Origin: Escherichia phage JP4
Length of the DNA stretch: 64,000 nucleotides
Direction: 5' to 3' (one strand)
Sequence record: PQ330092
In this document: in pieces, positions 1 through 64,000 of the stretch
Numbering within the stretch: the first letter of the stretch is position 1
How the letters are laid out: every line of letters begins with the position of its first letter
Made by a program: the position numbers and the translations under genes
The notes under the pieces: model-generated
Told to the model about the DNA's origin: nothing
The model's input: only the letters and a program-made list of their open reading frames with translations
Database searches by the model: none

Positions 1-201
1 AGTTATGAATGTGATAATGAAGATTATGATTATGATGACGAATCAATTGAATTGAATGTTAACGATATTGATACAGAAGAAAAATTCTTCCAGTACTGCC
101 TCGTTAACAACACATTAGGATTAACATTTGATGACATTAGTGCTATCCTTAAAGTTCAAAAATTGATTCCAGAAGAGGTATTAAATCCGTTAAATGACTA
201 G
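1..201 (+). CDS. partial CDS (5' end outside window); C-terminal domain of paralog family A
   Basis: Open frame from window edge to TAG 199-201; C-terminal FFQY..L..LT.DDI motif shared with ORFs 402-779, 1503-1922, 1912-2340. Confidence 0.45.
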   Translation, partial: SYECDNEDYDYDDESIELNVNDIDTEEKFFQYCLVNNTLGLTFDDISAILKVQKLIPEEVLNPLND

Positions 202-409
202 AACAGTTTACAAGCACAATGGTGTGGTGTATCTAGCAGATAATGCTGGAACTTGGATTGTTAATCAAGGTAATCCACCAAATCCATATTCAGTTGGAAG
301 TGAGTTTTCACTTAAAAGAACATGGCTATCAACTGATAATATGTGTAAGTATGGGGATTTTGATACATATGGAGATGCTATGAATCGTGTTCGTTCTATA
401 ATTGATTAA
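194..409 (+). CDS. hypothetical protein
   Basis: 71-aa ORF; ATG overlaps upstream stop (ATGACTAG), typical phage gene packing. Confidence 0.5.
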   Translation: MTRTVYKHNGVVYLADNAGTWIVNQGNPPNPYSVGSEFSLKRTWLSTDNMCKYGDFDTYGDAMNRVRSIID

Positions 410-779
410 AAGGTACTTGATGGATAGTCTAATAGTACGTATAATGCAAGATGTTCGTAAGAATCTTTATACTGGTAATTTTGATGATCATAACATAAAA
501 ATATTATGTTATGATGGTTTCACACTGACACATCCATCAGAATCTAATAATATATACATAGCATATACTTCTCCTAATATTTTGTATCAATTTGATTTAT
601 ATAGTACAATGGCTAAGATAACCTTAGATGTTTCTAATGAGCCGATTTTTATAGCAGTACGTGATGTTGAGTACACAGAAGAGTCATTATTCCAGTACTC
701 AATGATAAATGACATTGGTGACTTGACATTAGAAGAAATAAATGTTATAGTTGGTATGTGTCGTTTGATTAATCCATAA
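402..779 (+). CDS. hypothetical protein, paralog family A
   Basis: 125-aa ORF; C-terminal LFQYSMINDIGDLTLEEINVIVG motif matches neighbours. Confidence 0.55.
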   Translation: MIKRYLMDSLIVRIMQDVRKNLYTGNFDDHNIKILCYDGFTLTHPSESNNIYIAYTSPNILYQFDLYSTMAKITLDVSNEPIFIAVRDVEYTEESLFQYSMINDIGDLTLEEINVIVGMCRLINP

Positions 780-792
780 CTCGGAGCTTAAT

Positions 793-984
793 ATGTTTTG
801 GAATTTGTTATGCTTATTTGGTCGTACATTGGTTCTTGCTATTATTCATACACCTGGTATTCGTAATTATGTTTCTTATGAATTTAAGAAAAATTATCAT
901 AACAATACTGAAGTTCGTACAACTAAGATGTGCAAAGACTTCAAGGTAGATGTTCCACCATTCAAGAAGTACGAGGATGAATAA
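793..984 (+). CDS. hypothetical protein
   Basis: 63-aa ORF with hydrophobic N-terminus; stop overlaps next start. Confidence 0.4.
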   Translation: MFWNLLCLFGRTLVLAIIHTPGIRNYVSYEFKKNYHNNTEVRTTKMCKDFKVDVPPFKKYEDE

Positions 985-1268
985 TGGAATTCATTGTTGC
1001 ACCTGATGAACTTAAAACATTTACGTTCAGAGATAATAACAATTATCCTTATACAAATCATTCATTGAATTCATTGCATGTTATTTCAATCATTGCATCT
1101 GAATACAGAGATAATCCATGTATTGATTTTAAAACCACTGATGGTGAATATACATGGGTGTTCCCAAAAGATAAATATAGTTATCAAGGGGCAGTAGAAA
1201 TTCGTGACTCGATTCTAAAACAAATCGAAGATGGAAATACTCATCCTAAACTAAACACTCAGTACTGA
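984..1268 (+). CDS. hypothetical protein
   Basis: 94-aa ORF; ATGA start/stop overlap with upstream ORF. Confidence 0.5.
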   Translation: MEFIVAPDELKTFTFRDNNNYPYTNHSLNSLHVISIIASEYRDNPCIDFKTTDGEYTWVFPKDKYSYQGAVEIRDSILKQIEDGNTHPKLNTQY

Positions 1269-1457
1269 AATCGTTTAACCCGATAGCTTCTAGTCAGTAC
1301 TGATTCCTCCTTATGTATAGAAGCTATCACTTTTTTACGTATAATGATATTACCCTCAAATTCATTATATTCGTTACCCTCTAACAGTATCTTTTTATTC
1401 CTCTTGGATGCTGTAATTTAGAAGTTGACTTTTTAACTTCTACTGTGTTATACTTAA

Positions 1458-1484
1458 GGCTGATTCGATGAATCGGCCTTTTTT
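1458..1484 (+). terminator. rho-independent terminator
   Basis: 9-bp stem ggctgattc/gaatcggcc (one G-U pair) followed by T6, after the gene ending at 1268. Confidence 0.6.
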
Positions 1485-1502
1485 CTTATATAGGTGAATG
1501 CA

Positions 1503-1922
1503 ATGAGTTATTTGTTTACTTTAATTGATAAGTATGTTGACATTGTATACTGTCAAGTTTGTAGTGATACGTTTGAAACAAAAAACCCAATTAGAGATGG
1601 CTTTTTTGATGTTGTCGTTGGATCATTTTTGAATGGATACACCGAGACATTATACAACAGTAATAATATTTTTATTTCAGTTCAATCCAGACATACATCA
1701 GACTATGCTGTTAGCATTGATATTTGGGAAAATAATATAGAAATAGATATAACGGAACATACTAACATTCATGTTGATGATACATTTAATCAATTAACTG
1801 AAGAAATGTACTTGCAGTTGAATTTTGTACATGATCTTACAAATATCAGTTATGATACATTAAGGAAAATATGTTTTCTTAGTGGGGTGATCCGTAGTAA
1901 TATGAGTAAGGATGGGAAGTGA
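1503..1922 (+). CDS. hypothetical protein, paralog family A
   Basis: ORF track starts at GTG 1494; in-frame ATG 1503 sits 5-6 nt after aggtga SD; C-terminal FNQLTEEMYLQLNFVHDLTNISYDTL motif. Confidence 0.55.
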   Translation: MSYLFTLIDKYVDIVYCQVCSDTFETKNPIRDGFFDVVVGSFLNGYTETLYNSNNIFISVQSRHTSDYAVSIDIWENNIEIDITEHTNIHVDDTFNQLTEEMYLQLNFVHDLTNISYDTLRKICFLSGVIRSNMSKDGK

Positions 1923-2340
1923 AATGTTAAAAATTCCACCTAAGTCGTTAACACATCTTATTGAATGTGGTGTAATATTTTCCGAAGGTGATACCTCATC
2001 ATACACATTGGTCGATGAACCTTATAATTTTTCATACCAATCTTATAAAAATAATTCTAAAATTTCTTGTAGATATGCTGAAAACATATTAATAGATGTT
2101 TCGTTACATAATGTTCCGAAATTTTACATTGATATCTTTGGTGATTCTTTGACAATTCGAACATATGATTATTTTATTAATAAAGACCTCTTGAGTCTTC
2201 CAATTGAACATGATACTATAGATTCAGAGATGTTCTTTCAACTATCAACAGTTTACGATTTACAGGGTTTAACTGTTGAGCAGTTGAATGGAATATTTGA
2301 GATTTCACGAAACATACGAAGCAGGAATAAAAATGTCTAA
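1912..2340 (+). CDS. hypothetical protein, paralog family A
   Basis: 142-aa ORF; C-terminal FFQLSTVYDLQGLTVEQLNGIFEISRNIRS parallels the upstream neighbour. Confidence 0.55.
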   Translation: MGSEMLKIPPKSLTHLIECGVIFSEGDTSSYTLVDEPYNFSYQSYKNNSKISCRYAENILIDVSLHNVPKFYIDIFGDSLTIRTYDYFINKDLLSLPIEHDTIDSEMFFQLSTVYDLQGLTVEQLNGIFEISRNIRSRNKNV

Positions 2341-2743
2341 TATTTTAAATGAAAAAACAGTTGATGTTGTTATTGGTGTTCTTAACACCGCAACTTCATT
2401 TCAGAAGAAACACAGTGTTGTATACTTTGGTGAAGATTGTTGGCTGAACTATACTAATAATTCGTTTATAATTCGTGTAGAGGCTGATGATATTGGATTA
2501 ACCGTTCAGGTAGGATGTACCAAAACTGACAAACAAATCACTGTCATTGTTGATAAACTTACGTCTTCTTTTTATGATAGTATAGATGATTGTGAACACT
2601 GTAGTTCAACATTTTATGATACAGAAGAAGAACATTTTATGGAAAGTACTGTTCAAGAGTTAGCTATTCCATATAAGCTAATGAAAGCAGTGAGTGATTT
2701 AATTTTAAAATATAAAAAAATAGGAGTTACTAATGCAATTTAA
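2333..2743 (+). CDS. hypothetical protein
   Basis: In-frame ATG 2333 after aggaa SD chosen over track start 2288; overlaps upstream stop by 8 nt. Confidence 0.5.
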   Translation: MSNILNEKTVDVVIGVLNTATSFQKKHSVVYFGEDCWLNYTNNSFIIRVEADDIGLTVQVGCTKTDKQITVIVDKLTSSFYDSIDDCEHCSSTFYDTEEEHFMESTVQELAIPYKLMKAVSDLILKYKKIGVTNAI

Positions 2744-63022: not shown

Positions 63023-63187
63023 ATGAATACTTTTACCTTCGCTCAATTGAACGCCCTGGATGTATTGTCTGATGCTTTGCGGGATGCAACTGAAAGCGGT
63101 TTATTTGACAATGTTGACATTCACCCTGATGTAATTAATAATTTTTGTGATGCTATCGCAGAAGTACTGGAAGATCTAAAAAAATAA
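63023..63187 (+). CDS. hypothetical 54-aa acidic protein (absent from ORF track)
   Basis: MNTFTFAQLNALDVLSDALRDATESGLFDN..; ATG after gagga SD, directly behind promoter and stem-loop. Confidence 0.5.
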   Translation: MNTFTFAQLNALDVLSDALRDATESGLFDNVDIHPDVINNFCDAIAEVLEDLKK

Positions 63188-63197
63188 TAGAAAGTAC

Positions 63198-63225
63198 TTG
63201 CAATTAGTTTTTAGTACTGTATAAT
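63198..63225 (+). promoter_or_regulatory. early-type promoter with conserved 5' stem-loop
   Basis: TTGCAA-16-TATAAT, then hairpin gggagaa-atgg-ttctccc at 63239-63256. Confidence 0.6.
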
Positions 63226-63275
63226 AGTTTACATAGAGGGGAGAAATGGTTCTCCCTGGTAATGAGGAAAATAAA

Positions 63276-63497
63276 ATGGCAAATATCACTACTCTTTCCC
63301 AACTGGAAGCACTGGTTAAATCTATGCGGGAACATGCCGACAAAATCGGCGTACAAGATCCAGCCGTTTGCTTCTGCGACGAATTGAATGATGATACCCT
63401 GGTAATAGCAGAAGTCCAGGACGTTTCTAACTATTCCTCGCGTTACACTGGCGGCGTAGCAAATAAAGGTGACTTCTGTTTATACCTTACAAAATAA
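63276..63497 (+). CDS. hypothetical protein
   Basis: ATG 63276 (MANITTLSQ..) after gagga SD; track start 63246 lies in the stem-loop. Confidence 0.55.
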   Translation: MANITTLSQLEALVKSMREHADKIGVQDPAVCFCDELNDDTLVIAEVQDVSNYSSRYTGGVANKGDFCLYLTK

Positions 63498-63502
63498 CAA
63501 CG

Positions 63503-63531
63503 CGGGGAGATAATAACTCCCCGTTACTTTT
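63503..63531 (+). terminator. rho-independent terminator
   Basis: Stem cggggag/ctccccg, loop ataataa, then ttactttttc. Confidence 0.6.
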
Positions 63532-63665
63532 TCAGTACTGAATCATTTAATAGACGGATCTCGGCACCCGGTGGGTTAGTGACTGTTTCGTCTTGATGTA
63601 GTAATTATGCCAGTACTGGATGCACTTGTCAACAACTATTTTTCAAATACTTTTTATTAAAATAC

Positions 63666-63693
63666 TTGCTAATAGTTTTTAAACGCGTATAAT
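63666..63693 (+). promoter_or_regulatory. early-type promoter with conserved 5' stem-loop
   Basis: TTGCTA-16-TATAAT, then hairpin gggga-gcgg-ttcccc at 63704-63718. Confidence 0.55.
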
Positions 63694-63739
63694 GTTTTGC
63701 ATAGGGGAGCGGTTCCCCTGGTAACTAAGGAATAAGAAA

Positions 63740-63976
63740 ATGCTTGAACAAATCAAATCAACGTCTGCTAATGTAACGGGAACGGTATCACACTTTATTG
63801 GTGATGAATCGCGGGGCGTTCCCTATTGTGCTGTACATGTAAACACTGAGGGTAACTACTGGTTTACGGTTTACGGATCATATTCATTTGGACGGCCAGG
63901 GCATCAAAAAATTCTGGATAAAGTACAGCCAACGGGTAAAAATATCACGGCTGAAATGTTTTATAAAAAATCATAA
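63740..63976 (+). CDS. hypothetical protein
   Basis: 78-aa ORF with aagga SD; another promoter-like TTGATA box begins at 63982. Confidence 0.55.
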   Translation: MLEQIKSTSANVTGTVSHFIGDESRGVPYCAVHVNTEGNYWFTVYGSYSFGRPGHQKILDKVQPTGKNITAEMFYKKS

Positions 63977-64000
63977 AGTACTTGATAATAGTTTTTAGTA

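Follow-up and report, generated by a model that had tools for sequence, protein, structure and literature searches.

A 64,000-nucleotide stretch of Escherichia phage JP4 DNA (sequence record PQ330092; hereafter the window) contains 233 copies of the hexamer AGTACT, against 21.6 ± 4.6 and a maximum of 33 in 100 dinucleotide-preserving shuffles. The excess reflects selection at the level of DNA, extends through the genome of the closest relative and through related jumbo phages, recurs in an unrelated family of prophages and co-occurs with the loss of GCGC. We propose that a candidate dimer acting in trans reads TTnC-AGTACT-GnAA, with operator pairs in early promoters and selection on the density of sites, which possibly form half of a self/non-self code; we give this reading somewhat less than an even chance. 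An earlier sequence-only reading of the window had noted the enrichment, put the expectation for 64 kb at about 20 copies and counted 11 copies in 58681-59520. Exact counting bears out all three (the computed expectation is 21.6-22.2 from shuffles and Markov models of orders 0 and 1), with an effect larger than had been stated; what that reading missed was the genome-wide and clade-wide extent, the purge of GCGC and the second, unrelated phage lineage.

AGTACT is the top over-represented hexamer of the window and its only enriched 6-bp palindrome. Comparison of k-mer counts with a Markov expectation, suggested as a check by the same reading, gave an observed/expected ratio of 10.5 under the order-1 model, so not near 1. 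Expected counts were 21.9 at order 0, 22.2 at order 1, 44.6 at order 2, 91.8 at order 3 and 188 at order 4, the last approaching the observed count because AGTAC and GTACT are almost confined to AGTACT. The octamer CAGTACTG is present 52 times, where 0.8 copies are expected. Inflation by paralogous repeats was ruled out, as 232 window sites lie in 213 distinct 42-bp contexts, and the spacing between sites is approximately exponential (coefficient of variation 0.98). By region, density is 2.8 per kb in 1-39000 (small early genes), 4.1 per kb in 39001-58000 (an array of RCC1-repeat genes) and 7.5 per kb in 58001-64000, the start of a direct terminal repeat of about 20 kb.

Open reading frames (ORFs; 129 called) cover 85% of the window; 177 sites fall inside genes (3.25 per kb) and 55 between them (5.7 per kb). 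All three frames are used (84, 45 and 48 sites). Codon usage had been named as a possible explanation of the excess, and it fails: the 177 coding copies compare with 54.7 ± 6.1 when synonymous codons were shuffled within genes and with 27.0 ± 4.9 when codons were permuted, which rules out codon usage and amino-acid composition as the cause. The word leaves its mark on both levels of the coding sequence. Codon usage predicts that Ser-Thr is spelled AGT-ACT 26 times, and the count is 84; tyrosine codons between a preceding AG and a following T are TAC in 45 cases and TAT in 4, although TAC makes up 35% of tyrosine codons overall. The dipeptides themselves are in excess (Ser-Thr 172 against 98 expected, Val-Leu 163 against 108). 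Since codon choice and dipeptide usage are both distorted, selection acts on the DNA word and bends the protein sequence too. The RCC1-repeat array alone holds 78 intragenic sites, where 8.6 are expected. A tRNA-Ser(GCU), which reads AGY, is encoded just upstream of the window (locus L007:37930-38019), and a tRNA-Thr is also phage-encoded; these tRNAs could offset the load of AGT and ACT codons that the motif imposes.

The sequence around the hexamer is symmetric. The position immediately left of the core (-1) is C, and its right counterpart G, in 45-51% of half-sites, with G at the left position reduced to 8-10%; T is favoured at -3 and -4, and the core itself is strict. The symmetrised consensus is TTnC-AGTACT-GnAA. 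Among its fuller forms, TCAGTACTGA occurs in 46 copies and TTCAGTACTGAA in 14, 6 of them in the terminal repeat. Complementarity between left and right flanks is no higher than their separate frequencies predict. Symmetric flanks that do not covary fit two independent half-sites of a symmetric dimer on duplex DNA, not a hairpin, and the absent covariation rules out an origin of the symmetry in hairpins or RNA structure. A palindrome with symmetric half-site preferences is what operators show. An oriented signal of the Chi or DNA-uptake type was not found in AGTACT, which is its own reverse complement and has symmetric flanks. Variants with one mismatch, such as AGTATT and AATACT, are not depleted, ruling out biased repair of the Vsr type as the origin of the excess.

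When neighbouring sites are sorted by distance, 43 pairs fall in a sharp peak at 20-21 bp, compared with about 5 per bin. The paired sites make up a conserved early-promoter architecture, AAAA-AGTAC[TTGACA/TTGCAA]-N11-c-AGTACT-G-[TATAAT], which occurs in the terminal repeat of the closest relative, E9.1 (described below), in RaK2 and in metagenomic relatives. The promoter contexts quoted by the sequence-only reading are present in the window, AAAGTACTTGCAA in 5 copies and CAGTACTGTATAAT in 2. Among 152 promoter-like matches in E9.1, AGTACT keeps almost exclusively to two registers: 16-18 promoters have a copy that begins 7 nt upstream of the -10 element, and 17-21 have one that begins 27 nt upstream of it; 12 of the 18 promoters with the copy adjoining -10 lie in the terminal repeat. 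AGTACT thus takes fixed positions overlapping core promoter elements, a second trait of operators, and a pair of sites near -37.5 and -16.5, two helical turns apart, would fit a repressor operator pair. Promoter-associated sites number only about 35-40 of 897 non-redundant sites in the E9.1 genome.

Rak2/121Q-like jumbo coliphages (genus Asteriusvirus) match the window at 97-99% identity, vB_EcoM_E9.1 (E9.1) best of all. The E9.1 genome (367,851 bp, loci L002-L008) contains 1030 copies of AGTACT against 105 expected and 223 of CAGTACTG against 4.6; its non-redundant part of 347,744 bp holds 897 sites. Every 10-kb bin is enriched: the structural and replication core has 12-20 sites per 10 kb, the arms of small early genes have 25-37, and the direct terminal repeat has 65-68. 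Over-representation throughout the genome, in coding and noncoding DNA and in any frame, is the pattern known from the cyanobacterial palindrome HIP1 (see below).

We compared orthologous 41-kb regions around the large terminase gene of further relatives. AGTACT ranks first among hexamers in RaK2 (91 against 9.7), GAP32 (89 against 11.5), Salmonella phage Munch (69 against 12.2) and Yersinia phage fHe-Yen9-04 (78 against 10.6), so that the enrichment is common to five jumbo-phage genera on enterobacterial hosts, including Klebsiella, Cronobacter, Salmonella and Yersinia. The distant relatives PA5oct (1 against 11.3) and Atu_ph07 (2 against 6.1), from Pseudomonas and Agrobacterium hosts, lack it. 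Mapping by pairwise blastn showed that most sites are not conserved in position among relatives, although at about 74% nucleotide identity AGTACT is retained 1.5-2.5 times more than generic hexamers (for example, 49% against 20%). Density is kept while single sites turn over; selection is on density, not on exact position. T5, an AT-rich unmodified coliphage with a comparable terminal repeat, has 10 copies where 13.7 are expected; the trait is therefore lineage-specific, and a general host effect on AT-rich coliphages was ruled out.

A second lineage shares the motif. We looked through viral contigs for occurrences of the 14-mer ATTCAGTACTGAAT and of two CAGTACTG copies close together. Beyond Rak2-like contigs, the scan yielded AT-rich elements of about 33 kb (GC content 0.40-0.44) with a 10-20-fold excess of AGTACT; they carry lambda-like head genes and are prophages of Leclercia, Phytobacter, Enterobacter and an Escherichia species. 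Pooled over 297 kb of loci from this family, 1301 copies compare with 90 expected. At one locus (L139) the neighbouring host chromosome is essentially free of sites, and L138, a related AT-rich prophage of Atlantibacter, shows no enrichment. The flank profile matches that of the jumbo phage: 51% of half-sites have C at -1 and 10% have G there, and 44-46% have T at -3/-4. It is free of motif-based selection bias because it was measured on loci that had been found through the terminase gene. BLASTP, tblastx and phmmer found only a lysozyme domain in common between the prophage family and the jumbo phage, plus a tail protein at one locus. That tail protein (L140:18192-21047, in the Escherichia sp. 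prophage; E9.1 106496-109285) is 50% identical over about 950 amino acids, a match that indicates an exchange of receptor-binding modules between the two AGTACT-rich lineages. A helicase and small proteins without known function are present in enriched prophages and absent from L138, which is uninformative about a reader. In prophage L135, the moron genes are recently acquired: moron ORFs have 0.34 sites per kb, far fewer than the 5.4 per kb of core genes, and clusters of 4-7 sites occupy the short spacers that separate the morons.

The same genomes have lost GCGC. The tetramer is absent from the window (0 against 33 expected) and from the non-redundant 348 kb of E9.1 (0 against 181); RaK2, GAP32, Munch and Yen9-04 likewise have none in the regions sampled, where 22-41 are expected in each. 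Enriched prophages have 1 copy where 114 are expected, and the pooled 297 kb of family loci have 0 against 517. These observations cover the window, E9.1 and loci L009-L012 and L135-L140, L138 being normal. GCGC occurs at normal frequency in L138 (72 against 62), PA5oct (35 against 41) and T5 (89 against 91). When all 4- to 6-mers were compared, the features specific to both enriched lineages were that GCGC is gone in every flanking context and that GTAC and AGTACT are enriched; other missing sites, such as GAGCTC, are missing from controls too. Among 168 viral loci with at least 6 expected GCGC, 47 are AGTACT-enriched and GCGC-free and 108 are neither; 9 are enriched but keep GCGC, all weakly so (6-12 sites), and 4 are GCGC-free without enrichment, and as these loci represent only two independent lineages, the Fisher P value overstates the evidence for coupling. 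Three unrelated IMG/VR contigs (L216, L078 and L134) have 0-1 GCGC against 19-45 expected and no excess of AGTACT; the loss of GCGC can therefore happen alone.

CGCG, ACGT and TCGA are at expected levels and CpG is not generally depleted, which rules out CpG deamination and points to selection against the tetramer itself. Conversion of GCGC to GTAC by deamination was rejected by reasoning, in that methylation could not drive both of the required steps one after the other. In 50 kb of the Escherichia coli chromosome there are 0.06 AGTACT and 6.8 GCGC per kb, whereas the phage has 2.6-3.6 AGTACT per kb and no GCGC; taken together, the two words set phage and host DNA apart almost completely. Palindromes are avoided more widely in the window, where 23 6-bp palindromes, including GCATGC and GAGCTC, do not occur, most GC-containing palindromes are depleted and GATC, CATG and CTAG stand at 0.54-0.67 of expectation. 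GCATGC is absent genome-wide from both strands (0 against 78).

Several points agree with the reading that we prefer, which would work as follows. A symmetric, sequence-specific dimer, encoded by phage or host, would read the palindrome around AGTACT. At the early sigma-70 promoters of the terminal repeat it would meet one copy overlapping -35 and another abutting -10 on the same face of the DNA, and early transcription would come under the control of this operator pair, which would most simply switch it off. DNA-level selection has driven AGTACT to about one per 150-400 bp throughout the genome at a cost in codon and amino-acid choice. The genome-wide copies could label phage DNA as self, so that it is protected, organised or handled preferentially, and an activity directed at GCGC would act on non-self DNA. 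The excess, its selection as a DNA word, the symmetry, the promoter registers, the spread over clades and the joint loss of GCGC are shown; we infer binding of AGTACT by a protein, repression of early promoters by that binding and a role in telling self from non-self; the last is suggested by the opposition between AGTACT-high, GCGC-free phages and a host with the reverse composition. A full two-word code independent of base modification, with an AGTACT reader for self and a GCGC-directed activity, probably a nuclease, against host or competing DNA, seems doubtful to us. Part of that doubtful proposal is that the prophage family either evolved the same code independently or was shaped by trans-acting factors of jumbo phages encountered in shared hosts. 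The same flank preferences in two lineages without shared genes favour a common trans-acting factor.

Our search for such a factor used Pfam and PADLOC on 224 proteins of at least 110 amino acids from the two early arms. Among the matches listed there was no restriction-enzyme family, the RE_ScaI, HinP1I and HaeII types included, and no phage-encoded endonuclease or methyltransferase specific for AGTACT. Small virion and terminal-repeat proteins gave no significant match to a DNA-binding family. Pfam, PADLOC and PDB sequence searches yielded no candidate reader, the nearest approach being a sub-threshold HTH_3 match (E = 0.1) in a 72-amino-acid virion protein. A 'restriction enzyme' label in record OQ708376 was rejected as an apparently shifted annotation. 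In that record (L259, OQ708376.1 311825-323942), product labels such as 'endonuclease V' and 'protein kinase' apparently sit on the wrong ORFs, and its 'restriction enzyme' label is therefore unreliable.

Some of these results, and others, weigh against the proposed dimer and code. Among the matches listed from the same scans there were no helix-turn-helix (HTH) or TetR regulators and no GCGC-specific nuclease, and the early genes of the terminal repeat matched no Pfam family. With no gene but lysozyme in common, the two lineages could share a phage-encoded reader only if it were very divergent or convergent. That T5 and L138 are not enriched, and that sites lie inside the first promoters to fire, argues against a ubiquitous host reader. 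About 900 sites per genome are hard to square with the needs of a regulator, and the self/non-self part draws on co-occurrence in only two independent lineages.

We weighed five alternatives, which in falling order of probability invoke DNA modification, a host factor, a role in RNA or transcription, a nuclease site and neutral processes. The first, which we regard as unlikely, is that AGTACT is the target of a DNA modification and is kept together with its modifying enzyme, the modification itself being the mark. Such joint upkeep has been argued for HIP1 (GCGATCGC), the highly iterated palindrome of cyanobacteria, with which cognate methyltransferases are associated. AGTACT is a classical Type II restriction site (ScaI/Eco255I), and as other GC-containing palindromes are avoided, about 1000 copies of AGTACT would need protection wherever AGTACT-specific restriction occurs. 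RaK2 DNA has been reported to be methylated, with CpG methylation, and resistant to many enzymes (PMC3622015). The methyltransferases of the jumbo phage are, however, only a Dam-family N6-adenine enzyme and a short C5 enzyme whose closest solved relatives are Dnmt3 catalytic domains. The target of the C5 enzyme, as reported or inferred, is CpG, in agreement with the RaK2 report; this dinucleotide does not occur in AGTACT. When the (D/N/S)PP(Y/F) motif was used to look for additional amino-methyltransferases, E9.1 had none and the prophages one, at a single locus; a cognate AGTACT methyltransferase of the kind that accompanies HIP1 was not found, and none is conserved in the prophage lineage. 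The undepleted one-mismatch variants speak against repair-driven conversion, and modification alone leaves the fixed promoter registers unexplained. The sequence-only reading had offered a protein-binding site or a modification; the former is favoured, indirectly, by the symmetric, non-covarying flanks, the promoter registers and selection in all frames, and the latter gains no support from gene content.

With still lower probability, phage DNA could hijack a DNA-binding protein of the Enterobacterales, foremost the nucleoid-occlusion factor SlmA, whose antagonism of FtsZ is switched on by site binding; phage DNA filling the cell would activate or titrate it, for example to block division. The SlmA-binding site (SBS) GTGAGTACTCAC is a 12-bp palindrome with an AGTACT core (PMC3020112); its critical bases are G1, T2, A4 and G5, with a purine at position 3. 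SlmA is a dimeric HTH reader restricted, as is the motif, to enterobacteria. The trait is limited to phages of Enterobacterales and lost in the relatives from Pseudomonas and Agrobacterium, and a host factor would account for two unrelated lineages with the same flank preferences and no shared genes. Cells infected by phage Sharanji filament, and DNA spreads through the cell (PMC11895373), an observation that serves only as context. The flanks nevertheless led us to reject SlmA-binding sites. Phage sites prefer T-n-C at positions 1-3, an outer TTnC in place of the GTG of the SlmA site; there is no match to GTRAGYRCTYAC in 347,744 bp, G at position 3 is at 8-10%, and half-flanks of the GTR type are depleted (23 against 55 expected). 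About 50 SlmA sites occur in the E. coli chromosome (PMC3020112), compared with about 900 AGTACT in 348 kb of phage DNA. The normal counts in T5 and in the Atlantibacter prophage also count against any host factor, and a host repressor at -37.5 and -16.5 would block the phage's own first promoters. We know of no other host factor with specificity for AGTACT and these flanks.

A role in RNA or transcription, either as a hairpin and terminator block or as an element for RNA polymerase or a phage sigma factor, with the intragenic copies as by-products, is very improbable. Terminator-like hairpins made of two copies do exist, at 59314-59347 in the window, at 7138-7163 in prophage L135 and in the published terminator Torf26 of phage CBB. 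This upholds part of what the sequence-only reading said about hairpins, although the string that it quoted, gccAGTACTtgatactggc, is not found verbatim. The fixed registers of the promoter copies, and a sigma-70-family sigma factor encoded in the window, could be read the same way. Yet few sites lie in hairpins and few are promoter-associated, about three-quarters of the window sites are single and intragenic in all frames, flank complementarity is only at chance level, and a palindromic promoter element would be directionless.

There is a similarly slender chance that AGTACT is the cleavage or nicking site of a nuclease that the phage encodes or repeatedly meets, used productively, for example to make ends for recombination-dependent replication, or a palindromic counterpart of Chi that tames a host nuclease arriving from either side. 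Chi itself (GCTGGTGG) is enriched about 12-fold in E9.1 (30 against about 2.5 expected), so that protective oligomers are selectable in this AT-rich genome; 17 copies are on the plus strand, 9 of them in the terminal repeat, and 13 on the minus strand. A palindrome would be usable in both orientations, and the phage carries T4-type recombination genes. The scans of early-arm proteins listed no restriction-type nuclease family, however, and the promoter-register copies are again unexplained. To our knowledge, no enterobacterial nuclease is controlled by such a site. Hexamers related to Chi (CCACCA, CCAGCA and CTGGTG) are seen in the window, and CTGGTG likewise ranks among the top hexamers of GAP32, Yen9-04 and L138, the prophage without an AGTACT excess. 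That the excess arose neutrally, from codon usage, amino-acid composition, mutation bias or duplication, for which one could cite the frequent codons AGT and ACT and the tRNA-Ser(GCU), is refuted by coding nulls of 55 and 27 against 177, by enrichment in all frames and in noncoding DNA, by the 213 distinct contexts, and by the same hexamer and flanks in an unrelated lineage while T5, PA5oct, L138 and host DNA remain unenriched.

We found no published description of AGTACT enrichment or GCGC loss in phages, including the papers on RaK2, CBB and Sharanji. HIP1 is alike in being a short palindrome with a hexamer core and an octamer form, at about one per few hundred bp, intragenic in all frames as well as intergenic and maintained in density. 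It differs in occurring in cellular genomes that have methyltransferases, whereas AGTACT is found in phages whose host lacks the motif, with no cognate methyltransferase evident; the fixed promoter registers and the coupling to complete GCGC loss belong to AGTACT alone. Chi, DNA uptake sequences and FtsK-orienting polar sequences (KOPS) are likewise words read by proteins whose density is lifted by DNA-level selection while copies turn over, but they are asymmetric and orientation-dependent and their readers are known, whereas AGTACT is palindromic and operator-like at promoters.

Operators of the TetR, LexA and phage-repressor types are palindromes in fixed registers over core promoter elements; they serve few promoters, whereas AGTACT stands at about 900 positions, mostly intragenic. 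The pre-early shut-off of T5 also concerns first-expressed genes in a long terminal repeat, but T5 has no excess of AGTACT. The total purge of GCGC, together with that of many 6-bp palindromes, resembles restriction-site avoidance or self-immunity by site absence. It differs in being absolute (0 of 181), in spanning phages of many enterobacterial genera but not T5, and in its coupling to the AGTACT excess; we know of no GCGC-specific enzyme from these hosts. None of these closest comparisons combines a phage-borne hyper-abundant palindrome with promoter registers and the removal of a second palindrome.

If one protein reads about 900 sites per genome, it would be a major new organiser or regulator of widespread jumbo phages that are being developed for therapy. 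If true, the proposed code would explain how phages that have neither a nucleus-like compartment nor hypermodified bases distinguish their own DNA from that of the host. The joint excess of AGTACT and loss of GCGC, repeated in unrelated prophages, offers an experimental handle on a possible modification-free self/non-self system, and the signature of high AGTACT and zero GCGC is a simple key for finding further members in metagenomes. In practice, ScaI should shred these genomes and HhaI should cut nowhere, and the motif limits codon choice in phage engineering.

Table 1 Sites, promoters and other features of the window that contain AGTACT
Feature	Position	Strand	Details
AGTACT, 233 dispersed copies (52 as CAGTACTG)	1..64000	.	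Exact counts
Dense noncoding cluster, 11 sites	58681..59520	.	Mostly (A)TTCAGTACTGA(A/T); left end of direct terminal repeat
Perfect sigma-70 promoter TTGACA-N16-TATAAT	59157..59184	+	ATTCAGTACTG fills the spacer; AGTACT 59172-59177 abuts -10
Terminator-like hairpin	59314..59347	+	Arms are two CAGTACTG copies, then a T-rich tail
Tandem duplication of TTGATTCAGTACTGAATAATAGTACTCCTATATAGAAAGA	60318..60405	+	Unit with two sites 13 bp apart; four sites in total
AAAGTACTTGCAA-class promoter	60895..60927	+	AGTACT over upstream edge of -35
Same AAAGTACTTGCAA-class arrangement	61575-61607, 62136-62168, 62938-62970		
Two-site early promoter	63193..63225	+	Copies 20 bp apart centre to centre; AGTACT 63193-63198 overlaps first base of -35 TTGCAA; AGTACT 63213-63218, then G, abuts TATAAT 63220-63225
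AGTACTG-TATAAT junction, early genes	14627..14639; again at 18941	+	-10-abutting register
RCC1-repeat gene array	39001..58000	-	78 intragenic sites

The window has further features. The minus-strand array (39000-58000) comprises about a dozen paralogous genes for RCC1-repeat (WD40_RLD) proteins, with spacers of about 70 bp each. Between the perfect sigma-70 promoter and the terminator-like hairpin that follows about 130 nt later (59157-59347) there is no convincing ORF, and this segment may encode a small non-coding RNA. Near the left end of the genome (59560-59700) are iteron-like direct repeats of GACGGCTAAACGGCTAGAT and related GGATGGCT units, which may be a replication or packaging element. 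The sigma-70-family sigma factor, with regions 2, 3 and 4, is encoded in the early gene arm at about 11264-12229 of the window (L001:11353-12318), and a late sigma factor resembling T4 gp55 is encoded elsewhere in the phage genome.

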